Assembly: GCA_050298055.1 (NCBI GenBank) | Contig: JBNKTL010000045.1 | Location: 1-42,093, forward strand | Direction of reading: 5' to 3' | Origin: Spirochaetota bacterium | GTDB lineage: Bacteria; Spirochaetota; UBA4802; UBA5550 | Length of the DNA stretch: 42,093 nucleotides | In this document: piece by piece, positions 8,537 to 39,848 of the stretch | Layout: each line of letters opens with the position of its first letter | How positions within the stretch are numbered: the stretch's first letter is position 1 | The notes under the pieces: model-generated | What the model was told of the DNA's origin: nothing | What the model saw: the letters and a program-made list of their open reading frames with translations, nothing else | The model's database searches: none | Position numbers and translations under genes: made by a program

Positions 8537-11500
8537 ATGGAGAAGAAAATGAAAATCGAAAGAAACCGGATCCCCAAAATCGTATCTTTTGTACTTTTAT
8601 TTATAGTAACTGTTTTATTATCTTCCGGTTGCGATAATACTCAAAATTTTGAAGATGATCTGATACCGGATGAAGACGGGATGTCTGTTATTAAGCTCTA
8701 CCTGACGGACACTCCGGTCAAAAGACCTGAAGTGAGCAAGGTCTTTGTTCACATTAAATCCATTTTGGCTGAACATACGGAAAACGGGTGGTTGACAATA
8801 GCCGATTTTGGCGAACCGGGAAAGACCTATGATCTTATGGAATTGCAAAATGGAAAGAGAGCGGAACTGGGAGGCTTCCCCATTCCCTTTGGAAAATATA
8901 AAAAACTCAAAATGATTGTGGGTACTGAAAATGAAATAGAAGTTGACGAAGGTGACGGTCCCGTAATGCGTCCTTTGAAGACACATAAGAACCGGGAGCT
9001 GGAAGTCAAAATTGAACACACTTTTATTATTGCGGACAGCGGAGTACATGAGTTGACCTTTGATTTCGACGCAAAGAAATCGGTAATAATCATGAAAGGG
9101 ATGCTCTGTGAGATAATAGATTACTTTGATAATGTACTTGGAAAAATCAATAATAATCCGGATGCCAATGGACAGGGCAGAAAACATCCGGACAGATGTG
9201 ATGAAGGAACGAAGCATCACCAACATCGCCACCGCTGCGGCAGGGAAAAAGAAACATGTTACTTCCTGGAACCGCACATAAAAATTGTTGATTCTTTATC
9301 TTTGAGTATCTCAAAAGGAGTGCCGACCCTTACACTGCCGGATGGTGTTCCGGATGCGTTCATCATTAATAAATCAAATCTTTTGCCTCCTCCCCGGGTG
9401 AATTCAGAATATGTTCCCATTGGGAGTATTTATAATATTGAGCTGGATATAAACCGAATAGAGGGTCTGGATCCGGTCGAAGATAGTGGTGGGTCAGTCT
9501 TTTTCCCGGAGGGAACATTTGCCGAAATACATTACAGATATGATAAAACAAAACTGCAGGAAGCCGGACTGGCGGAGGATTTTATGGTATGGTACTATAA
9601 CGATGGAAGCTGGTACCCTGTAGAGAGAGTAGAGGTGGATACTGAAAATGGCGAGGTTATAGCATATACGAACCACTTTACTCCTTTTGTTCTCACTGCC
9701 ATGCCTGTGGGAACAGGAAGTGTTGCTGAACCACCGGCCTGTATTGTAAACGATTATCCTGCGGGTATAGGCGGAAGTGGAACTGCTGCCTTCACAGTGG
9801 TAGATGCCAATTTTAAATATTACCAGGACCGGAATTATACGATTATTCCCACTACAGACTTTTCGGATCTCGGGTTTGAGGGGGCCCTGGGAATTTCAAC
9901 CTGCAACGGCGGATCTCCCTGCGGGCCAGTGACGTCTCACAAGCAGTTCACCGGTACAAACTATATATCCTTTGTAACACAGCGTGATATAGATGTCTAT
10001 CTCATGTATGATTCCCGGGGAGGTGTGGACCGTTTCGATACCAGTGAAGACGCGCCCTGGATTGCCGGGGACGGGTTTGTCAATACGGGGAAGTTCATCG
10101 AGACAACTGACGCTGTTCATTATTATACAGTCTATAAAAAGTCTTATGCAGCCGGCGAAGTGGTTACTTTACACGGCAATCGTAACGGGATAACCGGTCC
10201 TACAGCTATTGATACCAATTACTGGCTCGTAGTAAAACCCCAGGGGGTTACGGCAACAGCGCCCGCAGGTTCCGTATGTACCATCCCGGATGAGAATCCC
10301 CCGGCACCGGTGGAGAATCTTACAGCTTTTTCCGGTCAGAACTCCATAATTCTTCAGTGGTCCAACCCGGTAGATAATGATTTTGCCGGTGTAGTCATTC
10401 GTCGTTCCTCGGTGAGTCCTCCCGCGCTTGTTTCGGAAGGGGAAGAACCTACCGGGGTGGTAGTCCATCCGGAGGTTTACCGTGATGAGGGATTGTCCCT
10501 GGGCACGACCTATTATTATACTGTTTTTGCCCTGGATAAAGACCAGAACATCAGTGCCGGTCGTACAATTGTCATGTCTACTGCCCTTGACCTGGACGGT
10601 GACGGCCTTTCCGATGTTTATGAAAACACAGTAACTTACGCAACCGGAAGCATGACTGATCACACAAATCCGGACACCGACGGTGACGGCATTGATGACG
10701 GTGTGGAAGTGGCCAACGGCACAGATCCCACCAATGGTGATGTCAGTGCGCCGGTTATAAGCGCTTTTACCCTTACAAGCGGTGACCCAACAACCTTCCC
10801 TATCATTGAATTTTCCCTTGAAGGAAATGATGATACGGGTATTACCGGCTGGCTCATAACAAAGACGGCGGATCCGCCACTGAGTACTTCCCTGGGCTGG
10901 CAGACTGCCAAACCCTCTGAAATGGAACTCTTCGCTTCAGGATCGTATAGCTTTTATGCCTGGGCCAGAGATGCCGCGGGAAATGTCAGTTCACCGGTAA
11001 CTCCTGTGTCAGTTACCCTGGAAGGTATCAATATCCCCAAGTTTGCCTATACCCTGAACCAGGGGTCCAGTATTATTGATATTTGCGGTATAGACAAAAG
11101 TACAGGAGAGCTCACCGATATTTCTTCTGTGGAGAATAGTTACACACCCAGGCAAATCCATATCCACCCCGGCGGTAGATGGGCTTATGTGGAAAACAGT
11201 AACACTATCAGAAAGTATGATATTAACAGCGCAACGGGAGAATTAATATATGTAAGTAATATTTCTCCGGATATTTCTCTTTCCGGGACCCGTATGGATT
11301 CATTGGGTGAATATTTCTATATCTATAATTCGCAAAAGATCAATATGTATAATATTAACAGTGTAAACGGTGAATTACAGTATATAAACCAGGTAAATTT
11401 GGGTGATAATGCCAGCATTGCGTCATTGTTTACAGTGCCAACCGATGATGGAGGTGTCCTGGTACCGGTTACCACGTCAACCCAGGTTTATGATCAGAAT

Positions 11501-13003
11501 CTGAAAGATCAATGCGTTGATAGTTGCTGTACGGACCAGACAATATTTGGCCCGGTAAATATGTGTGTTGCTACAATATACTGGTCATGGGAGCTGGCTC
11601 TCCTGCGATATCTTAACTGCAGGGATAATGTCTGTCCTTCCCAGGCTTACCGGACGGAATACAGTGATTATATGAGATTATATGACTTGATGCCTTTTTA
11701 CTCTCTGAAGGTAAATATCAATGCTCCGAGAATTCGGGGTTCCAGGGGGATTGTGTCTCCTTATGGAAATTTTGCCTACATGGTTAACAGTAATAGTAAT
11801 ACAATTTCAAGTTACAGTGTAGACCTTTCGGGAGGCGACTTGCAGCATATCGGGGACACTTCCATTGGAAGCAATCCTCTGGATTTTCAGATTGATCCCG
11901 AGCAGAAATATCTCTACCTGAATTATTCGGGCTTAAACATTATTTCCATCTATGCCATCGATCCGGGTACCGGCCAGCTGAGTCTTATCTCGGACCAGGC
12001 AGTGGATAATATTCCGGTATCTATCAGGCTGGACCCCACAGGACGAATCCTCTTTTCACTGGATGGCCAGGGGCAGACGATTGCCTCTTATCGTTTAAAT
12101 CCCGACGGGACGCTTCATCTTACCGACTACAGGTCAACAATCCGCCAACCGAAAAAAATGGCCATACTGGAGTATCACGGCGGAAATGATCCCCCTGTGG
12201 CAAGGATCACCACGTATAATAAAACCAGGTATTTTGACGGGAGCGACTTTAAGGAAACCTTTAAGCACTTTGTTCAGGCGGGTGAGGGTATCGAATTTAA
12301 TACTCACGGGAGTCTTGATCCTGACGCGGCACAGTGCGGTGCGGACCCCAATAACTATCACCACCATATTGAGCTTATAAGTAAGCCCGCCGCTTCGGCA
12401 ATGACCCAGGCGGACATAGATATCTGGGAAACAGCTATGGGAAGCCCGCCATACAAGATGATGTACTTTTACGCTCCGGGTAAAAGGGGGAGATTCACTC
12501 CCGATGTTCCGGGTGAATATGAATTCGAATACCGGTTTACGGACGATCCCGGAAGCTGTGACGATATTGCCAAAACTTCCAGTTCCCGGATCGTGATCAC
12601 TGCGGTGAACCAGATGAGAGATTCATCAAATTATCTATTAACAAGTGATCCTCCCGGTGCTGCACCGGCGGGCAACGCGGTTCTTGAATACGATTGGGAA
12701 AAATATTATGATCTGGAAGGTTCCGGATATTCCTATAATAGGATCTATAAATACAAAAAACGTAAGTATTATCGTGCGAGAGTCGATTCTCTGCATCATA
12801 AATGTTTTTTTTGGACTTGTGAAGATCATATTGATGCTGAATGTATTTCACCCTATGAAAACAGCGAGAAAAATGCTATTAATTACTGCCTGGAGTCTTT
12901 ACCCGATACTTTTAATAGTGGATTTTTACATTGGTCATATCGACATAATTATATCATCTGGACAAAAGAATATTATCACACGACCTGGTACTGGTGGGAA
13001 TAG
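8537..13003 (+). CDS. Large multidomain surface lipoprotein (DUF4382-like, ZU5/GPS-like, Fn3, DxDGDG Ca-binding repeats, Ig-like, lactonase-type beta-propeller, PKD-like, Cys/aromatic-rich tail)
   Basis: Lipobox LSSGC; LYLTDTP and ELTFDFDAKKS (DUF4382-like); TNHFTPF; YYYTVFALD (Fn3); DLDGDGLSD and DTDGDGIDDG; YAWARDAAGNVS (Ig-like); HPGGRWAYV and DPTGRILF propeller blades. Confidence 0.8.
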   Translation: MEKKMKIERNRIPKIVSFVLLFIVTVLLSSGCDNTQNFEDDLIPDEDGMSVIKLYLTDTPVKRPEVSKVFVHIKSILAEHTENGWLTIADFGEPGKTYDLMELQNGKRAELGGFPIPFGKYKKLKMIVGTENEIEVDEGDGPVMRPLKTHKNRELEVKIEHTFIIADSGVHELTFDFDAKKSVIIMKGMLCEIIDYFDNVLGKINNNPDANGQGRKHPDRCDEGTKHHQHRHRCGREKETCYFLEPHIKIVDSLSLSISKGVPTLTLPDGVPDAFIINKSNLLPPPRVNSEYVPIGSIYNIELDINRIEGLDPVEDSGGSVFFPEGTFAEIHYRYDKTKLQEAGLAEDFMVWYYNDGSWYPVERVEVDTENGEVIAYTNHFTPFVLTAMPVGTGSVAEPPACIVNDYPAGIGGSGTAAFTVVDANFKYYQDRNYTIIPTTDFSDLGFEGALGISTCNGGSPCGPVTSHKQFTGTNYISFVTQRDIDVYLMYDSRGGVDRFDTSEDAPWIAGDGFVNTGKFIETTDAVHYYTVYKKSYAAGEVVTLHGNRNGITGPTAIDTNYWLVVKPQGVTATAPAGSVCTIPDENPPAPVENLTAFSGQNSIILQWSNPVDNDFAGVVIRRSSVSPPALVSEGEEPTGVVVHPEVYRDEGLSLGTTYYYTVFALDKDQNISAGRTIVMSTALDLDGDGLSDVYENTVTYATGSMTDHTNPDTDGDGIDDGVEVANGTDPTNGDVSAPVISAFTLTSGDPTTFPIIEFSLEGNDDTGITGWLITKTADPPLSTSLGWQTAKPSEMELFASGSYSFYAWARDAAGNVSSPVTPVSVTLEGINIPKFAYTLNQGSSIIDICGIDKSTGELTDISSVENSYTPRQIHIHPGGRWAYVENSNTIRKYDINSATGELIYVSNISPDISLSGTRMDSLGEYFYIYNSQKINMYNINSVNGELQYINQVNLGDNASIASLFTVPTDDGGVLVPVTTSTQVYDQNLKDQCVDSCCTDQTIFGPVNMCVATIYWSWELALLRYLNCRDNVCPSQAYRTEYSDYMRLYDLMPFYSLKVNINAPRIRGSRGIVSPYGNFAYMVNSNSNTISSYSVDLSGGDLQHIGDTSIGSNPLDFQIDPEQKYLYLNYSGLNIISIYAIDPGTGQLSLISDQAVDNIPVSIRLDPTGRILFSLDGQGQTIASYRLNPDGTLHLTDYRSTIRQPKKMAILEYHGGNDPPVARITTYNKTRYFDGSDFKETFKHFVQAGEGIEFNTHGSLDPDAAQCGADPNNYHHHIELISKPAASAMTQADIDIWETAMGSPPYKMMYFYAPGKRGRFTPDVPGEYEFEYRFTDDPGSCDDIAKTSSSRIVITAVNQMRDSSNYLLTSDPPGAAPAGNAVLEYDWEKYYDLEGSGYSYNRIYKYKKRKYYRARVDSLHHKCFFWTCEDHIDAECISPYENSEKNAINYCLESLPDTFNSGFLHWSYRHNYIIWTKEYYHTTWYWWE

Positions 13004-15427: not shown

Positions 15428-15508
15428 AAAATATCAACAATATGTCCACGCCGCCAGGGGCGGCGGGGACATATCAGTTCTCTTTTTTAATGAAAATGAT
15501 TGTTCATA
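15428..15508 (+). repeat. Dispersed ~80-bp structured repeat, copy A
   Basis: Shares AAAATATCAACAATATGT (18 bp) and TAATGAAAATGATTGTTCATA (21 bp) with 39962-40038, around a GC-rich hairpin ATATGTCC-A-CGCCGCC-AGG-GGCGGCG-G-GGACATAT. Confidence 0.85.
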
Positions 15509-18329: not shown

Positions 18330-18901
18330 GGTGCGCCCGGCATGGGCGCACGCTTGGTGGTGCGGTGTAGAGCCATTAACGACCTTTCTGGTAATACACC
18401 TAGTCCACTACGGGGGTTGATAGTACCAACCGTTAGCTTAAGGCAAGGGTGTCCACCGTGAGGTGGAATCTGAAGGAAGCCGACGGCAAAATCCCGGCCT
18501 GACGAACAGGAATCACATAAGAGGCCGGTCAGAGTGGGTAAGTTTGCCAAACAAAACAAAGCCCATACTATCAAAGGTCTGACAGGTAAATGTGGCAGGT
18601 ATATGGGAGGAAAGCGTGCGTTCTTACCCGGGGAGGTCTGGCAACAGGTGAAACTGATGAACTTCAGGATCGCAACCCATATAGCAATATATGGCTGAGC
18701 TGTCAGAAGTCAGCAGAGGTCATAGTACTGTGGAAGGATAAGAGAAGCAGGAAGGACTGAACATTAAGAGGATATTGAAATCCGAATTTTGAGTATCATG
18801 CGGTGACAGCAGCCAACTCATTAAATGAGCCTTTGAGGGGACGTGAGGGTGAAGCCCTGAGAGAAACCGCAGAGAGCCGAGTATGATACCAGCGAAGAAA
18901 G

Positions 18902-20197
18902 ATGGAAATATCAAATGGACAAAAGATGAGTAATACACTATTTGATAGAATCTTATCAAGAGAGAACATGATGCTGGCACTGGGTCGGGTGCGTCGGAAT
19001 CGTGGCAGTCATGGTGTTGATGGAATGACGGTGGATGAACTTCCAGCCTATCTTGTGACAGCATGGCCATTCATCAGAGGTGAATTACTCTCCGGTACAT
19101 ATACACCTCAACCGGTCAGAAGGGTAGAAATACCCAAACCTGACGGTGGGATCAGACTTTTAGGAATACCAACAGTGCTGGATCGTCTGATACAGCAGGC
19201 TACAGTGCAGGTTCTTAGCCCTGTTTTTGAAGAAACATTCTCAGAGTACAGTTATGGTTTCAGGCCCGGGAAAAGTGCTCATACCGCCATCTTAAAGGCA
19301 AAAGAGCATATAGAACAGGGCTATACCTGGACAATAGACATGGATCTGGAGAAATTTTTCGACAGGGTGAACCATGACATCCTGATGTCCCGAATAGCAC
19401 GAAAGATAAAGGATAAGAGAGTCCTGAAGCTTATCAGGAACTATCTGGTATCTGGAGTGTTGGTGGAAGGGATTAAAGTATCTTCTGAGGAAGGGACCCC
19501 CCAGGGAGGTCCCCTCTCCCCGCTTCTTGCCAATATTCTTCTTGATGACCTTGATAAGGAACTTGAGAAGAGAGGCCACGTCTTTGTTCGATATGCTGAC
19601 GATTGTAATATTTACGTCAAAAGTGAAAGAGCAGGATTAAGGGTTATGGCAAGTGTAAGAAAACTGCTGACAGGAAAGTTGAAATTAAAGGTCAATGAAT
19701 CAAAAAGTGGAGTTGATCGACCTTGGAAACGGAAATTTCTGGGCTTCAGCTTTTACAAGATCAATGGTAAAGTCGGTATAAGAATTCATCCAAAATCTAT
19801 CAGGAAATTTAAGGAAACCATTCGTAAAATAACCAACCGGAACCACAGCCGTAATTTTGAGGAAAGACTTCAAAATCTTGCGGTTGTTACACGTGGCTGG
19901 ATAAACTACTTTGGAATTGCAGAAGCCAAAAGAGTCATGGAAGAGATTGATATGTGGACAAGGAGAAGACTTAGAGCCTGTCTTTGGAAACAATGGAAGC
20001 GTATTAAGACAAAACATGATAATCTTGTAAAACTGGGAGTCAACAAAGCCAAAGCATGGGAATGGGCCAATAGCCGAAAGGGTTATTGGAGAATTGCCGG
20101 TAGTTATATTCTATCGACAACTTTGACTAATAAATTTCTTGAAGAAAAGGGATATAAGAGTCTGTTAAAACAGTACAGGAAAGTACATTGTGCTTAA
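18902..20197 (+). CDS. ltrA: Group II intron reverse transcriptase/maturase, no endonuclease domain
   Basis: GVDG, IPKPDGGIRLLGIPTVLDRLIQ, SYGFRPG, DLEKFFD, GTPQGGPLSPLLAN, RYADD, RGWINYF (thumb/X domain). Start may be the ATG at 18926. Confidence 0.97.
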   Translation: MEISNGQKMSNTLFDRILSRENMMLALGRVRRNRGSHGVDGMTVDELPAYLVTAWPFIRGELLSGTYTPQPVRRVEIPKPDGGIRLLGIPTVLDRLIQQATVQVLSPVFEETFSEYSYGFRPGKSAHTAILKAKEHIEQGYTWTIDMDLEKFFDRVNHDILMSRIARKIKDKRVLKLIRNYLVSGVLVEGIKVSSEEGTPQGGPLSPLLANILLDDLDKELEKRGHVFVRYADDCNIYVKSERAGLRVMASVRKLLTGKLKLKVNESKSGVDRPWKRKFLGFSFYKINGKVGIRIHPKSIRKFKETIRKITNRNHSRNFEERLQNLAVVTRGWINYFGIAEAKRVMEEIDMWTRRRLRACLWKQWKRIKTKHDNLVKLGVNKAKAWEWANSRKGYWRIAGSYILSTTLTNKFLEEKGYKSLLKQYRKVHCA

Positions 20198-20198
20198 T

Positions 20199-20276
20199 GA
20201 ACCGCCGTATACCGAACGGTACGTACGGTGGTGTGAGAGGACGGTGAGTGAAATAATCACTCACCTCCTACTCGAT
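20199..20276 (+). ncRNA. Group II intron catalytic domains V-VI
   Basis: GAACCGCCGTATACCGAACGGTACGTACGGTGGTGTGAGAGG, then the GGTGAGTGA/TCACTCACC stem and the bulged-A region. Confidence 0.95.
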
Positions 20277-20546: not shown

Positions 20547-21428
20547 ATGAAGAAAAAGATCTTGAAAGGACTGGTATTTTTCGCAATTGGGTTTGTTATC
20601 GTGTTTACTCTGCGATTAATCTACGGATATGTAATATACCCTGACGGTAAAACCCGGACAATGCAGGAATCAAATTTCCAGGTTAACCGGGACTTTAGTT
20701 TTAATGTCAGGAACTATGCTTCCTATAAATACAGAAAATCCGCCAAAACTGGGGTCCAGACATACTCGGTTGACCAAAAATATGAAAAAATTGCCGATAT
20801 AAAATCTTCCACCGAAAAAATTGATGAGAATGAAAAAACGGTCAGGGATTTAATAAAAAGTCATGATTCAATAATTCAATATGAACAAAAAAGCGGCGTA
20901 AAACGTTCAAGAAACCGGATTTTAAACCTGGCAATCGGGGTGCCTCCCGGAAAATTCGATGAGCTGGTTGTAAAACTGAAGGCAATCGGGAAAATCATTT
21001 CGATTAATATCGATAAGAAAGACAAAACAAACGAATATAAGAAATTAAAAGCGAAAAAGAACTCGCTCCTTACTATCCGAAAATCACTGATCGCCTTAAA
21101 AAACAGGGGCGGTAAGATTGATGAATATATAAAACTGGAAAACCGCATACTGGAGATTGAAAAGGAAATTCAGGATTTAGGTATCAACCTGGGTGAATTT
21201 GATTCTGAAAACGAATTTTGTACGATAAAATTCTCATTGATTGAGGCATCGTATATCAAATCGAGTATCTCTTTTTTTCAGCGGTTCACTGTTGCGTTTA
21301 CCTGGAGCCTGAAATTCTATTTTGCTCTGACCCTCTTTCTCTTTTTTGCGAGCCTGACGATTCTCATCATCAATTCAATTATATCCAATTCAAAATGGAT
21401 ACAGAAATTATTTGAAAAGACGTCCTGA
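20547..21428 (+). CDS. DUF4349-like membrane-anchored protein
   Basis: N- and C-terminal TM segments, VPPGKFDELV and DKTNEY, coiled coil ending FCTIKFSL; AT-rich. Confidence 0.7.
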   Translation: MKKKILKGLVFFAIGFVIVFTLRLIYGYVIYPDGKTRTMQESNFQVNRDFSFNVRNYASYKYRKSAKTGVQTYSVDQKYEKIADIKSSTEKIDENEKTVRDLIKSHDSIIQYEQKSGVKRSRNRILNLAIGVPPGKFDELVVKLKAIGKIISINIDKKDKTNEYKKLKAKKNSLLTIRKSLIALKNRGGKIDEYIKLENRILEIEKEIQDLGINLGEFDSENEFCTIKFSLIEASYIKSSISFFQRFTVAFTWSLKFYFALTLFLFFASLTILIINSIISNSKWIQKLFEKTS

Positions 21429-21441
21429 AAAGAAGGAACAC

Positions 21442-23007
21442 CTATTCCCACTCAATGGTGCTGGGCGGTTTTGATGAGATATCGTATACTACCCTGTTGA
21501 TGCCTTTGACTTCATTAATGATCCTGTTGGAGACCTTTCTCAGGAGGTCTTCGGGGAGATAGGCCCAGTCCGCGGTCATGGCATCAACCGAGGTAACGCC
21601 CCGTATTGCGATAACATTCTCGTATGTCCTCTTGTCTCCCATAACGCCTACTGACTTTACCGGGAGGAACACGGCAAAGATCTGCCAGAGTTTGTAGTAG
21701 TATCCCGCGTTCTTGATCTCTTCAAGAAGGATATCATCGGCCTTCTGGAGGACCTTTATCCGGGAAGGTGTCACTTCTCCTATGATCCTGATTGCAAGTC
21801 CCGGTCCGGGGAAGGGCTGTCGGTAAACCAGTTCATCGGGTAGTCCGAGCATCTTGCCCAGAATCCTTACTTCATCTTTGAAAAGTTCCTTGAGGGGTTC
21901 AATGACCTTTCCCGATTTAATCAGCTTCATCACTTCGGGGACCCTGTTATGGTGGCTCTTGATGGTATCCGAAGGTCCCTTTGTTGAAACAGACTCAATA
22001 ACATCGGGATAGAGGGTCCCCTGGGCGAGAAAATCAAACTTGCCGATCTTTCGCGCCTCATCCATGAATACCCTGATGAACTCCTTTCCGATTATCCGCC
22101 TCTTCTTCTCGGGGTCTTCGACTCCTTTTAATTTATCGAGAAACTGTTTTGATGCATCGGCATAGATCAGGTTGAGCTTCATGTGCTTTTTAAACCTGTC
22201 AATAACGCGGGTATGCTCATCCTTTCTCAAAACGCCGTTATTTACAAAGACGCAATAAAGCCTTTCCCCTATGGCCTCATGGAGAAGAGCCGCAGTGACC
22301 GATGAATCCACACCCCCGGATAGACCGAGAAGAACGGTCCCGTCCCCCACTTCCTCCCTTATTGCCTTTATTGAGGTTTCAACAAAGGATTTCATGGACC
22401 AGGAGGGTTTCAGTCTGCATATCTCGAAGAGAAAATTTTTCAGTATCTTTTTGCCGTTTTTCGTGTGGTGGACTTCAGGATGGAACTGGACCCCGTACAT
22501 TTTCAATTTGCTGTTTTCGATGGCCGCATATTCTGCATTTTCAGATTTTCCCGATCTTTTAAATCCTTCGGGAAGGGAAGAGACCCTGTCCCCGTGGCTC
22601 ATCCAGACAAGTTCTTTTTTCTTGAGTCCCCTAAAAAGAGGTGATGTGCTTTGTATATCAAGTGTTGCCCTGCCATACTCCCTTTCATTGCTGGGCTCAA
22701 TATTTCCGTTGAAGGCGTCCACAAGCATATAAAGCCCGTAGCATATCCCAAGGACCGGGACGCCCATCTTGAAAATCTCTTTATGGATTTTTGGAGAGTC
22801 TTTTTCATAGATGGATGAAGGCCCTCCTGAGAGAACCAGGGCAGATGGTTTAAATGCCTTTATTTCTTCTATTGACTGATGGTAGGGAACGATCTCAGCA
22901 TAAACCTTCAATTCCCGGATTCTCCTGGCTATGAGCTGTGTAACCTGTGAACCAAAGTCCAGGATAAGGACCCTTTCCCGGGGCAGGGCTATTTTGTGGT
23001 CTATCAT
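21442..23007 (-). CDS. guaA: GMP synthase (glutamine-hydrolysing)
   Basis: LDFGSQ, LGICYG, QFHPEV, LSGGVDSS, IKSHHN, PFPGPGL, SKPPSTIEWE; ATGA overlap with the purE stop. Confidence 0.98.
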   Translation of the reverse strand: MIDHKIALPRERVLILDFGSQVTQLIARRIRELKVYAEIVPYHQSIEEIKAFKPSALVLSGGPSSIYEKDSPKIHKEIFKMGVPVLGICYGLYMLVDAFNGNIEPSNEREYGRATLDIQSTSPLFRGLKKKELVWMSHGDRVSSLPEGFKRSGKSENAEYAAIENSKLKMYGVQFHPEVHHTKNGKKILKNFLFEICRLKPSWSMKSFVETSIKAIREEVGDGTVLLGLSGGVDSSVTAALLHEAIGERLYCVFVNNGVLRKDEHTRVIDRFKKHMKLNLIYADASKQFLDKLKGVEDPEKKRRIIGKEFIRVFMDEARKIGKFDFLAQGTLYPDVIESVSTKGPSDTIKSHHNRVPEVMKLIKSGKVIEPLKELFKDEVRILGKMLGLPDELVYRQPFPGPGLAIRIIGEVTPSRIKVLQKADDILLEEIKNAGYYYKLWQIFAVFLPVKSVGVMGDKRTYENVIAIRGVTSVDAMTADWAYLPEDLLRKVSNRIINEVKGINRVVYDISSKPPSTIEWE

Positions 23008-23534
23008 TTCTGTTCCTCGAGATTTTTAATATACTCTTTGTAGCCGGTATTTTCCATCTTTCTGTTTTTTTCAGATATTTTATCGGCCATATCGTTCCGG
23101 TATTTTTTTATTTTCTCTTCAAGGGATGGGTCGCTCAGGGCAAGTATGCTGATGGCAAAGAGAGCTGCATTGGCACCGCCGGCTTTTCCTGAGGGCATTG
23201 TTGCCACCGGTATTCCCGAGGGCATCTGCAGTATTGAGAGTATTGAGTCGAGACCACCTGAGATATTTGTCTCAATGGGGACCCCTATTACCGGAAGTGT
23301 TGTATGTGCGGCGACAATCCCGGGCAGGTGTGCGGCTCCTCCGGCAACAGCAATAATTGCTCTGACCCCTCTCTCACGGGCGGTTTCAACCCACTCCTTT
23401 GTCTGGTCTGGTGTCCTATGGGCTGATGAAATAAGGATCTCAAATTCAACGTCAAATTCCTCCAGTAATTTAAAACATTCCTTTATTTTTGGGAGATCAG
23501 AGTCGGATCCAAGTATTATACCAACCAGAGCCAT
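23004..23534 (-). CDS. purE: N5-CAIR mutase
   Basis: GSDSD, SAHRTP, AGGAAHLPG, LPVIGVP, QMPSGIPVAT. Start set at the second ATG (23534), which has GGAGG upstream. Confidence 0.97.
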   Translation of the reverse strand: MALVGIILGSDSDLPKIKECFKLLEEFDVEFEILISSAHRTPDQTKEWVETARERGVRAIIAVAGGAAHLPGIVAAHTTLPVIGVPIETNISGGLDSILSILQMPSGIPVATMPSGKAGGANAALFAISILALSDPSLEEKIKKYRNDMADKISEKNRKMENTGYKEYIKNLEEQK

Positions 23535-23646
23535 AACAGGTACCTCCATTGCATTTAATAGATTACATTACTCTTACCGGTTTTAGAAATCTTCACTGTC
23601 CATATTTGTCAATAGAATTATTTATCTGGAATGTATTGAAAAAATT

Positions 23647-23689
23647 TGCTCTGACCCCTATTTTAAGCTCAAAAAAATGCTCTGACCCC
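23647..23689 (+). repeat. Pair of TGCTCTGACCCC direct repeats upstream of the RAYT-like gene
   Basis: Exact copies start at 23647 and 23678 (31-bp period). Confidence 0.92.
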
Positions 23690-23781
23690 ATTTCAAAAAA
23701 AATGCCTGAACTTTCCAAAAAGTTTTAATTTTTTTCATTTACAATCGTATTAATACATAAAGCTAGAATAAGGAGAAAAAC

Positions 23782-24372
23782 ATGCCCAGACCATTAAGAG
23801 AATGCAAACCAAACTTAACATACCATGTCTGTTCGAGATGTGTTGAAAGCCGTGATTTTATTCAAAATGATTATTTTAAAGACATAATGATTGAAATTTT
23901 GAAATCAGCACTGGAAAAATATAATTTTGAGCTCATAGCATATGAAATCCTTCACAACCATTTCCATTTTATTATAAGAACAGTAGATGAAGGGGAGTCC
24001 ATTTCAAGGATAATGCAGTATATTAAGTCCCGGTTTGCGCAAAAATACAATAGAATAAACAAAAGAGAAGGCGCATTCTGGAGTGAAAGATTTGTGAGTA
24101 AGATTATTGAATATACTAAAAATCCAAAAAAATATTTATTTTGGCTATTATGGTACCTGGGATTTAATCCTGTTCGAAAAAAAATTGTCAGAGATCCGAG
24201 AAAATCAAAATATGGAAGTATTAATGTATATCTGGATGAAAAATATAAGTCACCGGTAAAAATTACATTGCATGATTATTTTATCCAGTTAGGAAATTCA
24301 TTTAAAGAAAGGGCCCAGAAGTTCCTCTATTATGAGGATGCATATAGAAAAAGACTTTCAATAATTTATTGA
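23782..24372 (+). CDS. REP-associated tyrosine transposase-like (RAYT / Y1 HUH nuclease, IS200 superfamily)
   Basis: MPRPLR..YHVCSR N-terminus, NHFHF HUH motif, GAFWSERF, YLGFNPVR catalytic-Tyr helix; AAGGAG RBS; low GC. Confidence 0.9.
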   Translation: MPRPLRECKPNLTYHVCSRCVESRDFIQNDYFKDIMIEILKSALEKYNFELIAYEILHNHFHFIIRTVDEGESISRIMQYIKSRFAQKYNRINKREGAFWSERFVSKIIEYTKNPKKYLFWLLWYLGFNPVRKKIVRDPRKSKYGSINVYLDEKYKSPVKITLHDYFIQLGNSFKERAQKFLYYEDAYRKRLSIIY

Positions 24373-24585
24373 TTCCACTATTGAATAAAGCTTCTCATCG
24401 AACTTTTCTCATATAAAAAAATAAGTTTATATTTTATATCTTTCAGAATTTGATGCAATTATTGTTATTAATTTACAAGTAAATTTTATTCGATGAATAA
24501 GTGAACTTATAAAATTTATGTAGTATAATTTGTTTTGTAGTGAAGAAATAATTGTTAGAGTGAAGTCAAGGTTCTTAATGAGAGT

Positions 24586-24632
24586 TGCTCTGACCCTTAT
24601 TTTTATTTATATTTCTAAAATTGCTCTGACCC
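24586..24632 (+). repeat. Pair of TGCTCTGACCC direct repeats downstream of the RAYT-like gene
   Basis: Exact copies start at 24586 and 24622 (36-bp period). Confidence 0.92.
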
Positions 24633-24854
24633 TGAAATCCCTTGCAGCAAAGTTCTTGAAAAAATCTTTACTATTATATTAACTACATTCATGAAATGAG
24701 TAAGAAATTACAAATGTCCACAAACAGATAAATAATCAGGTCTAACTCATCGTTGACAGCTATCGGCATTTTGTAATCATAATGAGAACTTTTTTAACCG
24801 TGCTAAGAAACCTTAAGATACAGTAAATATTAATGGAATGAAAAATAGAGTAAG

Positions 24855-26423
24855 CTGAAAATCGTAATTAACAACATCCCGATAAAACCGGATGAACCTG
24901 AAAGCAGGATTATTGAGGTTCTGAAGGTGGATTATGGACTGAAAAAAGTCTCATATACTATATTAAAGAAGTCCCTTGATGCCAGAAAGAAGAATAATAT
25001 ATTCTACACCTACAGGGTTCTGGTTGAAGTCAGTGACGAGGAAGCGGACAAGCTCCTAAAAAGGGACCAGGTAACCCATTACAGGAAGAATAATTTTCCC
25101 TGTCCTCCGTTTATTAAGAAAAAAATCAAAGTAAAGATTATCGGTTTTGGCCCTGCAGGCCTTTTCTCTGCATTGAGGCTGGTCAATGCCGGTGTGGAGG
25201 TTGAGATTTTCGAGAGGGGGAAGGAGGTCAGTGAGAGGCTGGCTGATATTAAAGGGCTAGAGGCAAACGGGAACCTCGATCCTGAGAGCAATGTCCTTTT
25301 TGGTGAAGGGGGCGCGGGGACCTATTCCGATGGAAAGCTCACCACTAGGATAAACAGGCCGGAAGTAAGCTGGTTTTATAAACAACTTGTTGAGTTTGGA
25401 GCGGATTCATCTGTTCTTGTGGAATCGAAGCCTCATTTGGGAACAGACCGGGTCAGAGCAATTGTCCAGAACATCAGGGAGTTTATTATTTCACAGGGCT
25501 CACATGTCTATTTTCATGAACGGGTTGATGATCTTGTCATTAGAAAGGGGAAGATAGAAGGGATAAGGACATCCTTTGGGAGAGAATATCCAGCGTCCCT
25601 CCTCATCCTTGCTGCGGGACACTCAGCCAGGGATGTTTATCGGCTCCTGGAGAAGAAGGATGTTACCATGGAGAGGAAGGGCTTTGCCATGGGACTTCGG
25701 ATTGAACACCCGGCAGAGCTGATACGAAGCATTCAGTATGGCAGTTCGGAGTACAGGGATATCTTACCAGCTCCCGATTACAGCATGGCCTATAATAATG
25801 GTGTTACAAAGCGGGGGACTTACACTTTCTGCATGTGCCCCGGAGGGATAGTAATAAATTCTTCGTCGGAACAGAAAATGCTCTGTATAAACGGGATGAG
25901 CTACTCAAAAAGGGATTCCCTGTTTTCTAATTCAGCGGTTATTGTTACAGTCAGGCCTGAAGATACAGGAAATATGATCCTTTCCGGCATTGAATTTCAG
26001 GAGGACATTGAAAGAAAGGCATACATTGCTGGAGGGGGAGGATTTATTGCTCCTGCCCAGAGGGCTCTTTCCTTCATGGAGAAGAAGTTAGACGTCAACT
26101 TGCCGGGATCATCCTATAGACCGGGGGTCAGAGCAGCGAATTTGGAAGAGTTGATACCTTACTGGATGGCCGAAGAGATAAGAAAAGCTCTGGTTCATTT
26201 TAATAGAAAAATGAAGGGTTTTCTTTCAGAAAATGCACTTCTCTTGGGGGCTGAGACTCGTTCATCATCACCGGTAAGGATCCTCCGGAATGATAATTAT
26301 CAGTCAGTAAAAATAAAGGGGCTTTATCCAGCGGGAGAGGGTTCTGGATATGCCGGAGGTATTGTCAGTTCCGCAGTTGATGGAATCAGAGCAGCCGATG
26401 CAATATTAAGGAGGTTTAGTTAA
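24855..26423 (+). CDS. Uncharacterised FAD-dependent oxidoreductase
   Basis: KKSLDARKK, IIGFGPAGLF, FGEGGAGTYSDGKL, PHLGTD, TFCMCPGG, GEGSGYAGGIVSSAVDG. The frame is open back to CTG 24855; the ORF track starts at GTG 24927. Confidence 0.88.
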   Translation: MKIVINNIPIKPDEPESRIIEVLKVDYGLKKVSYTILKKSLDARKKNNIFYTYRVLVEVSDEEADKLLKRDQVTHYRKNNFPCPPFIKKKIKVKIIGFGPAGLFSALRLVNAGVEVEIFERGKEVSERLADIKGLEANGNLDPESNVLFGEGGAGTYSDGKLTTRINRPEVSWFYKQLVEFGADSSVLVESKPHLGTDRVRAIVQNIREFIISQGSHVYFHERVDDLVIRKGKIEGIRTSFGREYPASLLILAAGHSARDVYRLLEKKDVTMERKGFAMGLRIEHPAELIRSIQYGSSEYRDILPAPDYSMAYNNGVTKRGTYTFCMCPGGIVINSSSEQKMLCINGMSYSKRDSLFSNSAVIVTVRPEDTGNMILSGIEFQEDIERKAYIAGGGGFIAPAQRALSFMEKKLDVNLPGSSYRPGVRAANLEELIPYWMAEEIRKALVHFNRKMKGFLSENALLLGAETRSSSPVRILRNDNYQSVKIKGLYPAGEGSGYAGGIVSSAVDGIRAADAILRRFS

Positions 26424-26477
26424 TATTTAATATGAATTTCAATCCTTTGAAGAGAATCTTTATTCAAATTTAACTTT

Positions 26478-26550
26478 GGGTCAGAGCAAAATACAATATA
26501 GAGTAAACAATAATCAAGGACCTCCGAACACATATTTCGGGGTCAGAGCA
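26478..26550 (-). repeat. Pair of inverted copies of the motif (GGGTCAGAGCA) downstream of the FAD gene
   Basis: Exact copies at 26478-26488 and 26540-26550 (62-bp period). Confidence 0.92.
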
Positions 26551-28270: not shown

Positions 28271-28368
28271 TAACGACTCATGTATATGTCCCCTACCCAA
28301 GGCTGCGAGGATATACACGTTATATTTTATTTATTATCATGTCTCTTTTAATAAGAGCTGAGTCGTAA
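28271..28368. repeat. attC-like nested hairpin between the csp gene and purM
   Basis: TAACGACTCA-TGTATAT...ATATACA-CGTTA, plus AGCTGAGTCGTAA at 28356-28368; shares TAACGACTCA(GCT) with 20405. Confidence 0.5.
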
Positions 28369-38155: not shown

Positions 38156-39742
38156 GTGGTTAAGAATAAAAGATGGTCGGGAACCAGGGCGGCGGGACAG
38201 CTAATCTTCTGGCTTCTCTTCATAACAATTCTTATCAATACACGTGATCCCATAAGTGATCCGTTTATCTATAATCTCCTGCCCAAACTGTCAATACACC
38301 TGGGGATTACATCCTCCCTTGTGGCGGGAAAGCTGCTGGATTCCTTTTTCATCTCACTGGTTGTGGTTGCTCTGACCCTTTTCCTGGGAAGATTTTTCTG
38401 CGGCTGGGTCTGTCCCCTGGGGATAACTCTTGATGTAACGGACAGGGTCTTTAACAGGGGAAAAAACAACAGCCGGTCCCTGAGGGGGAAAAAGTGGAAT
38501 TTTAAACCGTACAAATATATTGTCCTGATCATATCCATTGTTGTGGCCCTGGCGGGTGTCCATGTGGCGGGGATTATCGACCCCCTCTCTCTTGTTTTCA
38601 GGACCTACGGCACGGTCATTTACCCTTATTTCGACAGCAGTATCAAACTCATCTTCACCCTGCTCTATAAGGTCCCCCTGGTGAATTCGGTAAGCGAACC
38701 GGTCTATGAGCTGTTGAAATCGCATCTTCTTGACTACAGGAACATCATGTTTTTGGGACACCTGAAGATCTTTTTCTTTTTTCTCCTGATAATAGCCCTT
38801 TCCTCTTTTGCCAGGAGGTTCTGGTGCCAGTCCCTCTGTCCCCTGGGGGCGTCCCTCTCCCTCTTCTCACGCTTTGCTCCTTTCCGGAGAGTGGTGGATA
38901 CGGATAAGTGTACCAATTGCCTCAGGTGTGAAAGAGCCTGCAGGATGAATGCCATTCATAACAGCGGTGAGAATACCTATGAGGGTGAGTGTATTAAATG
39001 CTTTGAGTGTCTTCCCTCGTGTGAGTATGATGCCATATCCTTCGGCTTTGAAAATCCCCTGGCCGGACCGGGGAAGGGAGAGGAAACAGTGAAAAAGGGC
39101 CGGGGAAAAGCAGAGGATGTTGATATATCCCGGCGCGGCCTGATTTACGGTCTCGTTTCTTCGGCTGTGGCGGTTCCGGTCTTAAAGAGGAAACCGGGGT
39201 ATGAAAAAGACCATACTTATCTCATAAGGCCTCCCGGGGCCCTTCCCGAGGAGGATTTTATTGACCACTGTATACGCTGCGGTGAATGCATGAAGGTCTG
39301 TCCCACAAACGCCCTTCATCCAACTATCTTTGAAGCGGGACTGGAGGCTGTTTTTACGCCCCGGCTTATTCCAAAGCTGGGATATTGTGAAAAGAACTGC
39401 ATACTCTGTTCGCAGATATGCCCCACTGATGCCATAAAAGAGTTGAAAATATCCGACAAAGAAACAACAATATTCGGGACGGCATATTTCAATAAAGACC
39501 TCTGCATACCCTGGTCGGAGCATATTAACTGTATTGTTTGCGAGGAGGTCTGCCCCACGCAGACAAAGGCAATCAGGTTCATGGACAAAACTGTTCTTAA
39601 CAAGGAGGGAAAGAGGGTCAGAGTCAAGCTTCCCTATGTTATCGAGAAACTCTGCATAGGGTGCGGGATATGCGAAAACAAATGCCCGGTACCCGGCAGC
39701 AGTGCCATTCGGGTAAGGACGCCGAAGCTCCCCCCGGTCTGA
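38156..39742 (+). CDS. Membrane-bound polyferredoxin (NapH/MauN-like plus NapG/MauM-like domains)
   Basis: GRFFCGWVCPLG, RFWCQSLCPLG, six CxxCxxCxxxC motifs, IRPPGA. Confidence 0.88.
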   Translation: MVKNKRWSGTRAAGQLIFWLLFITILINTRDPISDPFIYNLLPKLSIHLGITSSLVAGKLLDSFFISLVVVALTLFLGRFFCGWVCPLGITLDVTDRVFNRGKNNSRSLRGKKWNFKPYKYIVLIISIVVALAGVHVAGIIDPLSLVFRTYGTVIYPYFDSSIKLIFTLLYKVPLVNSVSEPVYELLKSHLLDYRNIMFLGHLKIFFFFLLIIALSSFARRFWCQSLCPLGASLSLFSRFAPFRRVVDTDKCTNCLRCERACRMNAIHNSGENTYEGECIKCFECLPSCEYDAISFGFENPLAGPGKGEETVKKGRGKAEDVDISRRGLIYGLVSSAVAVPVLKRKPGYEKDHTYLIRPPGALPEEDFIDHCIRCGECMKVCPTNALHPTIFEAGLEAVFTPRLIPKLGYCEKNCILCSQICPTDAIKELKISDKETTIFGTAYFNKDLCIPWSEHINCIVCEEVCPTQTKAIRFMDKTVLNKEGKRVRVKLPYVIEKLCIGCGICENKCPVPGSSAIRVRTPKLPPV

Positions 39743-39848
39743 TGCTCTGACCCCCTGAGGGGATAAGCTCAGAGGGGGGATAAGAGTGTTTGGGAAAAGA
39801 CCTTGCACTAAATGGTCAAAATTTGTTATTTTAAATTGATATTAATAT

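Follow-up and report, generated by a model that had tools for sequence, protein, structure and literature searches.

RAYT-like genes accompanied by GGGGWSAS repeats were reported in 2013 (Di Nocera et al., PMC3733652), and the TIRYT repeats were later linked to subclass 2.1 of the TnpA-Y1 proteins (Quentin et al. 2018, PMC6006769). The latter paper describes this subclass as the largest RAYT-like group, present in 14.9% of strains; it found no REP-like sequence (REP, repetitive extragenic palindrome) near the 2.1 genes, and the TIRYT link is said to need further analysis. HUH enzymes nick single-stranded DNA, hold the 5' end on a tyrosine and join this end to another 3'-OH (PMC8266576). Here we analyzed a 42,093-nt contig of a Spirochaetota bacterium (JBNKTL010000045.1, assembly GCA_050298055.1; hereafter the window), in which a Y1 HUH gene is surrounded by copies of the 11-mer TGCTCTGACCC. 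We consider it probable, at about 0.6, that this gene encodes a mobile TIRYT-like Y1 HUH enzyme that recognizes the short non-hairpin motif and propagates it.

The Y1 HUH protein

The gene (23782..24372, + strand) encodes a predicted protein of 196 aa that is an intact, RAYT-like, class-2 Y1 HUH protein: it combines H60-F-H62 and Y125xxxNP on a Y1 fold, the combination (HuH and Y---NP) that defines class 2 of TnpA-Y1, and carries the motif FWSERF. Its match to Pfam Y1_Tnp (E 1.4e-13) lies above the family cut-off, and the scores against the NCBIfam models RAYT (68 bits, cut-off 80) and IS200 (33 bits, cut-off 55) lie below theirs. Among 48 aligned homologues, H60, H62 and N129 are invariant and Y125 is present in 47. 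The AlphaFold model (predicted local distance difference test, pLDDT, 93.9) has its best fold match in the E. coli TnpA-REP structure (PDB 4ER8; E 6e-8, TM score 0.60), and a sequence search of solved structures gave a weak IS200 match only. The Pfam scan of the 196-aa protein gave no match to a helix-turn-helix (HTH) domain, and there is no C-terminal HTH. A first interpretation of the window, made from its letters alone (the sequence-only reading), had called the product a RAYT-like HUH nuclease, and the intact His and Tyr residues, the Y1_Tnp match and the 4ER8 fold match bear this out.

The protein family is compact, with 85 clusters at E <= 1e-30 among 1.84 billion representatives, and grades into subclass-2.1-like proteins. 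The next-nearest clusters outside it have YIELNP/YIHLNP together with LFQGRF, and Bac_DnaA_C was matched in 3 of the 19 scanned. All but one of the 25 named relatives come from uncultured Spirochaetota, and matches on plasmids are only 24-34% identical.

Comparison with described systems

Placed by comparison with published descriptions, the system appears to work like the Y1 enzymes associated with REPs or terminal inverted repeats (TIRs); it stands nearest to TIRYT/subclass 2.1, but lacks the long TIRs, the HTH and the low copy number described for them. As in the TIRYTs or TIRtrons, a RAYT-like gene without GTAG REPs is flanked at similar distances by GGGGWSAS repeats, and dispersed repeat families are reported there as well (PMC3733652). 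The reverse strand of our motif, GGGGTCAG, fits GGGGWSAS and is present at 23647 and 23678; the fourth G of the consensus occurs in 88 of the 149 core copies counted below. In contrast to the long TIRs described in PMC3733652, the unit here is only 10-11 bp with unrelated flanks: no long shared inverted arm brackets the gene, and the 11-mers to either side of the window gene are in direct orientation. Furthermore, copies here lie in register inside host genes, whereas the intragenic REPs in that paper are described as insertions, with replacement unmentioned in the available text.

With subclass 2.1 (Bertels group 1) the protein shares Y---NP, a HuH motif like NH[YF]H/NHVH, and the lack of REP hairpins (PMC6006769). 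Its NHFH matches the key motifs of the subclass, whereas FWSERF and YLGFNP deviate from W[EQ]/FQ and YIELNP/Y[IV]HLNP. Subclass 2.1 proteins have a median length of 238 aa and a C-terminal HTH-like extension, in contrast to 196 aa without HTH here, although 2.1.2 is allowed to be heterogeneous (PMC6006769). Class 2 is characterized by few copies per genome with little identity to one another, which is not what we see: the copies described below are numerous and near-identical.

The E. coli TnpA-REP/REPtron (4ER8) is the best structural match and has the same HUH/Tyr chemistry within the superfamily; it also resembles our system in having its own repeat for each paralogue, repeats clustered near the gene, and tandem arrays (PMC8266576). 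By comparison, the present system has no GTAG/GTGG foot and no palindromic hairpin, its protein scores below the NCBIfam RAYT cut-off, the gene itself moves, and coding bases are replaced instead of 20-40 bp being added (PMC8266576). The TnpA proteins of IS200/IS605 (IS608, ISDra2) are similar in their Y1 fold, in mobility and in the lack of target duplication outside the motif (judged by eye), but here we find Y---NP rather than Y---Q, no subterminal hairpins, no tnpB, variable ends, and a score below the IS200 cut-off. A literature search that left most subscription journals outside yielded no account of enzymes of this kind replacing coding bases with a motif without gaps.

A short non-hairpin motif that follows the enzyme

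All 12 exact copies of TGCTCTGACCC listed by the sequence-only reading, 10 of them around the nuclease gene, were confirmed at their coordinates and strands, and no copy with one mismatch was found within the 42,093-nt window. Upstream of the gene lie copies at 23647..23657 (+, about -135, in the left part of the mobile unit and common to the paralogue on contig C26) and 23678..23688 (+, about -104, pointing at the gene), the latter termed the anchor. Further intergenic copies are found at 24586..24596 and 24622..24632 (both +, 214 and 250 bp from the stop codon of the Y1 gene), and at 26478..26488 and 26540..26550 (both -). A distant copy at 39743..39753 (+) begins directly after the stop codon of a 4Fe-4S gene; the five remaining copies are coding.

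The source genome (G000; 4.71 Mb, 199 contigs denoted by C numbers, 98% complete) contains 89 exact 11-mers against 1.2-3.4 expected under Markov models of order 2-6, and a control with the reversed pattern gave 0 copies. Chance or codon preference, which could appeal to the coding copies falling in common peptides (GVRA, ALT), is refuted by these counts and keeps a negligible probability. The conserved core is the 10-mer GCTCTGACCC, present in 149 copies, preceded by T (89), G (40), A (10) or C (10) and followed by C (88) or T (47). No conservation beyond 11-12 bp was found in the flanks of the core copies, copies with one mismatch at positions 2-11 are no more frequent than expected by chance, and the core is split 74/75 between the strands. 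The motif had been noted as lacking a hairpin, and none is shared by nine folded neighbourhoods: eight have z-scores from -1.7 to +1.6, and the exception at 39743 (z -3.0) is due to a terminator-like stem in the flank. These foldings rule out an identity with hairpin REPs.

To relate the motif to the enzyme, we compared 40 related genomes, which are not independent samples, counting the enzyme as present if a match had E below 1e-30. All 11 relatives without a close homologue have 0-8 core motifs, and 25 of the 29 with one have 17-321. Two of the exceptions (G002, G009) have the variant TCTCTGRCAC beside their Y1 genes, and in the 65% complete G014 the motif adjoins the Y1 gene; the last, G019, is weighed with the mechanism. 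The variants GCTCTGACAC, ACTCTGACMC, TCTCTGGCAC and CTCTGAGC/GAGG group with protein clades in a quick IQ-TREE tree, an agreement that is descriptive only. Within the source genome, the letter preceding the core is T in 27 copies, G in 0 and A in 2 within 6 kb of TGC-type genes, and G in 14, T in 1 and A in 1 near GGC-type genes or ends. Many of these copies are element-borne or tandem; the coding copies alone give 5 T/0 G for the TGC type versus 5 G/1 T for the GGC type (p 0.015). Coding copies are also denser near the gene: 5 in 14.0 kb (36 per 100 kb) within 3 kb of three TGC-type genes versus 20 in 3.77 Mb (0.5 per 100 kb) more than 20 kb away, or about 70-fold.

These observations support the motif as the candidate cognate non-hairpin repeat of the enzyme, of the GGGGWSAS type. 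The sequence-only reading had tied the motif to the gene. The tie holds, given the 0-8 copies in enzyme-less relatives and the anchor copy conserved among homologous loci (see below); the density is enriched near the gene and not uniform; and cognate motifs of individual homologues are suggested by the variants that group with clades and by the first letter that tracks the nearest paralogue, with G019 unexplained.

A complete genome (G047, 4.8-Mb chromosome) with five element copies provides a wider view. Its motif clusters number 154 per Mb at 0.4-5 kb from an element, 7-23 out to 600 kb, and 1.8 beyond. Four of the elements have 22-24 other clusters within 450 kb, all four sharing only two broad domains, whereas the fifth has none and sits in a 1.3-Mb stretch free of the motif; thus, the element brings its own end motifs, and halos are not needed for insertion. 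The two motif domains on the C2 sequence extend from about 4.24 Mb round to 0.83 Mb and from 2.15 to 3.5 Mb, and could result from older element copies that spread the motif or from the folding of the chromosome. Such domains, together with the genome-wide presence of the motif, are what one would expect of a polar host chromosomal signal, related to replication or segregation, that the element merely targets. We regard this explanation as very improbable: the motif is nearly absent from relatives without the enzyme, neither genome shows strand skew (G000 74/75; G047 43/50), the variants follow enzyme clades, and one element copy lies in the motif-free stretch.

Three orphan clusters in the source genome (C4:63126, C12:79903 and C13:26050) consist of TGCTCTGACCC followed about 10 bases on by (A/G)CTCTGAGCA, the variant of the C30 paralogue. 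These mixed clusters look as if different paralogues use common hotspots. The orphan clusters on C12, C13 and C26 have longer flanks in common. Tandem motif arrays with a period of 18-20 bp were observed in G009 (C80, C91) and G027 (C22, C19, C70); several of them are at contig ends, so that array lengths are probably under-assembled.

Orientation of the copies

The sequence-only reading described a polarized field with plus-strand copies on the left and minus-strand copies on the right. The window has this order (chance probability 0.0095 for 10 copies, 0.057 for 7 clusters), with the strand switch between 24632 and 25450, downstream of the Y1 gene, but in homologues it is only partly general. 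We surveyed 48 homologous loci with a search pattern that misses the GAGG and GAGCA variants. Upstream of the homologues, copies were 55+/10- within 160 bp, 44+/17- at 160-400 bp and 49+/18- further away (11 from one array); downstream, they were 0+/21- within 60 bp, 7+/18- at 60-400 bp and, without bias, 31+/36- further away. A single clean switch is seen in 4 of the 24 motif-rich loci and is absent at the C26 and C5 paralogues, so that strict field polarity is ruled out as a family trait. The robust feature is the promoter-proximal copy at -60 to -160 pointing at the gene, found in 38/47 homologous loci. An inverted copy right after the stop codon, a further likeness to TIRtrons, is found in 21/47. 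Of the four coding copies in the 5-kb field of the window, three give [G/R]-V-R-A on the coding strand of the host gene, and the direction of these copies therefore follows the divergent purE and flavin adenine dinucleotide (FAD)-dependent protein genes.

Replacement in register within host genes

Predicted genes contain 27 of the 89 copies in the source genome, in four of the five stop-free frames; the coding calls come from our own hexamer gene caller (3954 genes, 82% coding), not from curated annotation. In the window, the coding copies are located (i) in a DUF4349 gene (20547-21428, +) at 21323..21333 (+), read as F-A-L-T-L; (ii) in purE (23004-23549, -) at 23358..23368 (+), read as G-V-R-A; (iii) in the FAD-dependent protein gene (24927-26423, +) at 25450..25460 (-), read as R-V-R-A, and (iv) again at 26125..26135 (-), read as G-V-R-A; and (v) in the 4Fe-4S membrane protein gene (38156-39742, +) at 38368..38378 (+), read as V-A-L-T-L.

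All five sites align gaplessly to orthologues: purE to 29/29, in which G-[ILV]-K-V is typical, both FAD-gene sites to 29/29, the DUF4349 site to 5/5, none with the motif, and the 4Fe-4S site to 13/13 homologues. The orthologues lack the motif at the five sites, except that G024 has the G-variant GGCTCTGACCC at the 26125 site. The copy at 25450 gives Val where 28 of the 29 orthologues have Leu. Two further coding copies, near the element on C1, align gaplessly to paralogous genes of the same genome. By these alignments, the coding copies are shown to replace host bases in register and not to be inserted.

At the five sites, orthologues match the motif at an identity of 0.36-0.51, below the gene background of 0.49-0.64 and above the motif likeness elsewhere of 0.24-0.27. 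The sites rank high in prior likeness to the motif, at 1/170 (the best) in purE, 10 and 23/482 in the FAD gene, 31/287 in the DUF4349 gene and 9/497 in the 4Fe-4S gene; this ranking is partly circular because orthologues resemble the query anyway. The pattern suggests that the enzyme may write the motif over look-alike sites.

In the genus g30, 8 of the 14 fetched G035 regions were aligned to up to eight other species. After exclusion of two sites carried by elements and one whose alignment was uncertain, 27 sites had the motif in one genome or more. Of the alleles, 89 are perfect; one mismatch is present in 4, two in 5, three in 11, and four or five in 3, and another 4 contain an indel. For sites that are perfect in G035, the partner genome also has the perfect motif in 62 of 71 pairs, where a local divergence of 18% would leave 12.4; the copies are thus old and maintained at the level of DNA. 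Alleles often differ by several codons at once (G-A-G vs G-Q-S, G-P-E vs G-S-E, A-I-T vs A-L-T), and at one site CAC and CCC variants differ in each direction. At the omitted site of uncertain alignment, two species gained the motif along with in-frame deletions of 3 and 9 bases.

In another reading of the same data, the motif is a site to which the Y1 protein or a host partner binds, which arises by point mutation and is kept by selection. DNA uptake sequences and Chi sites accumulate in coding DNA in a comparable way. Such a site would explain the 62 perfect pairs, synonymous positions included, and the lack of a tail of one-mismatch copies; mutation and selection would also leave gapless coding copies at near-match sites. 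We nevertheless find it unlikely, since it would have to accommodate a first letter that tracks the nearest paralogue inside one genome, multi-codon jumps with few single-mismatch alleles, tandem arrays of 18-20 bp period, the loss at 25450 of a Leu kept by 28/29 orthologues, and a patchy, mobile gene that fits a host-beneficial site poorly.

Mobility of the gene

The sequence-only reading had called the system domesticated, which proved wrong. The source genome has four paralogous loci, on C26 (95%), C5 (68%), C22/C1 (54%) and C30 (46%); the nucleotide identity between the window contig, C45, and C26 is 93%. The element of the C22 type is present in several copies that have collapsed in the assembly: two left ends and three right ends are found at contig breaks. 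In all seven relatives whose guaA-purE-FAD neighbourhood was compared, a Y1 homologue is missing there, and about 300-500 bp separate purE from the FAD gene in three. By this comparison, the window gene, which lies between these two genes, is an insertion specific to its lineage. Up to 27 matches of the Y1 family occur per genome among the relatives.

In G047, four aligned element copies are 99.0-99.8% identical in the gene and occupy unrelated sites. In three of them both boundaries fall exactly at a motif, TACTCTGACCC on the left and TACTCTGACAC on the right, and the DNA immediately beyond is unrelated; the fourth starts from the second upstream motif and differs at its right end. These near-identical copies, the paralogues and the empty purE-FAD neighbourhoods rule out domestication. 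At locus L098 the site is empty in three congeners, and the G035 insert begins exactly at the motif. Divergence made the filled and empty junctions unreadable at L092 and L099, and L091 could be read only roughly.

The left element end could not be taken from a comparison of C45 with C26: their likeness runs about 15 bases past the motif, and the reading is confounded because an insertion sequence (IS) adjoins the C26 motif directly. This IS (C26:23730-24960), upstream of the C26 paralogue, has TG...CA ends with TTTG on both sides (by eye), the apparent TTTG duplication overlapping the first motif letters; from its end pattern we take it to be IS3-like. In the Y1 genes of g30 (L091, L092, L098, L099, L101) the motif is found inside the coding sequence itself, just after Y---NP, and their upstream regions are mosaics of modules, each beginning at the motif.

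Alternatively, the scattered copies might be footprints: the whole element or a non-autonomous derivative would insert at near-matches, hop locally and leave its end motif on excision, with no short-patch writing. Element ends coinciding with motifs, the orphan clusters on C12, C13 and C26 with longer flanks in common, up to 27 family matches per genome, and the two congeners that gained the motif at one spot with deletions are in line with this. It would, however, require that purE and other conserved genes be disrupted for a time and then repaired in register, on two occasions in the FAD gene, and all five coding copies in the window have kept the exact length. We hold footprints to be quite improbable.

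Proposed mechanism

In the scheme that we propose, the enzyme would cut at, or just 5' of, the strand (T/G)GCTCTGACCC, and the motif-led strand would be joined at a nick in a half-matching site, with a preference for sites close to the gene of the enzyme. The outcome would depend on the tract copied: (i) rejoining the target within about 10-11 bases would overwrite it, or restore a decayed copy; (ii) medium and longer tracts would give the tandem arrays of 18-20 bp period seen in several genomes; and (iii) long tracts from the promoter-proximal anchor copy through the gene would move the element. Selection at the protein level would then retain only tolerated frames. The sequence-only reading proposed that the enzyme binds, cuts or deposits the motif locally; of the three, deposition is best supported.

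In its strongest form, the scheme describes a natural short-patch DNA writer of 196 aa, working without guide RNA or reverse transcriptase, in which a DNA-templated 10-11-mer adjoining the enzyme's gene would be copied over half-matching sites, edit proteins in frame, restore decayed copies and move the element itself, with the written letters partly programmable via the donor copy. We put forward this form tentatively, at somewhat less than even odds.

Several observations weigh against propagation of the motif by the enzyme. G019 has six enzyme matches and no enriched motif among those tried. As many as 57 of the 89 copies are on contigs other than those of an intact TGC-type gene or more than 20 kb away from one, some of them in orphan clusters. 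The right end of the L098 insert is not at the motif, nor are the right ends at C45 and C26 motif-defined. No close relative of the source genome was found among the 40 relatives and metagenome contigs, so that for the window sites the comparison is limited to orthologues whose proteins are about 35-73% identical; no pre-motif alleles were found among the matches listed from three sequencing runs, two of which may be the window's own source. The excess of shared 3' extensions that the scheme predicts among non-coding copies (16 vs 8 of 88, p 0.09) is weak and inflated by one tandem array. In g30, the nine imperfect partners of G035-perfect sites include two single mismatches, not significantly below neutral decay, the three-mismatch peak rests largely on two sites, and the frame was checked at nine sites only, of which one is apparently non-coding. 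Old, shared sites make up the majority in the congeners, and purifying selection explains them equally well.

Other features of the window and the source genome

Three other high-copy intergenic repeats occur in the source genome: TGTCCCCGCCG (285 copies), ACTACTCAGCT (107) and CCCCTAACCCC (63), located in the window at 15462, 46 and 33231, respectively. The reverse strand of TGTCCCCGCCG contains GGGGACA, close to GGGGWSAS. Two further Y1 genes (C13:35427 and C37:46914) have flanking repeats of their own. In contigs from the X1 and X2 runs, a position near 28280 is joined to one near 24659 with 11 additional letters; this junction lies close to the motif at 24622 and may represent another repeat.

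A group II intron (18452-20276) with an intact reverse transcriptase/maturase gene (18902-20197) was identified using Rfam and Pfam; it contains no motif and was the sole match in the Rfam scan of the window. At 8537-13003, a 1488-aa protein with DUF4382, TSP3 repeat and beta-propeller stretches is encoded.

Implications for the family

The available text of the papers on the 2.1/TIRYT proteins (PMC6006769, PMC3733652) contains no demonstrated substrate or function. The family described here offers a defined 10-11-nt candidate substrate, natural pairs of paralogue and motif, and predicted junctions, and these make the question testable with the published cleavage and strand-transfer assay. If overwriting is true, it would give mobile elements a new way to alter the coding sequence of their host without inserting into it. 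Conservation would then be imposed at the DNA level, mimicking selection, and the protein would be a very small candidate editing enzyme.

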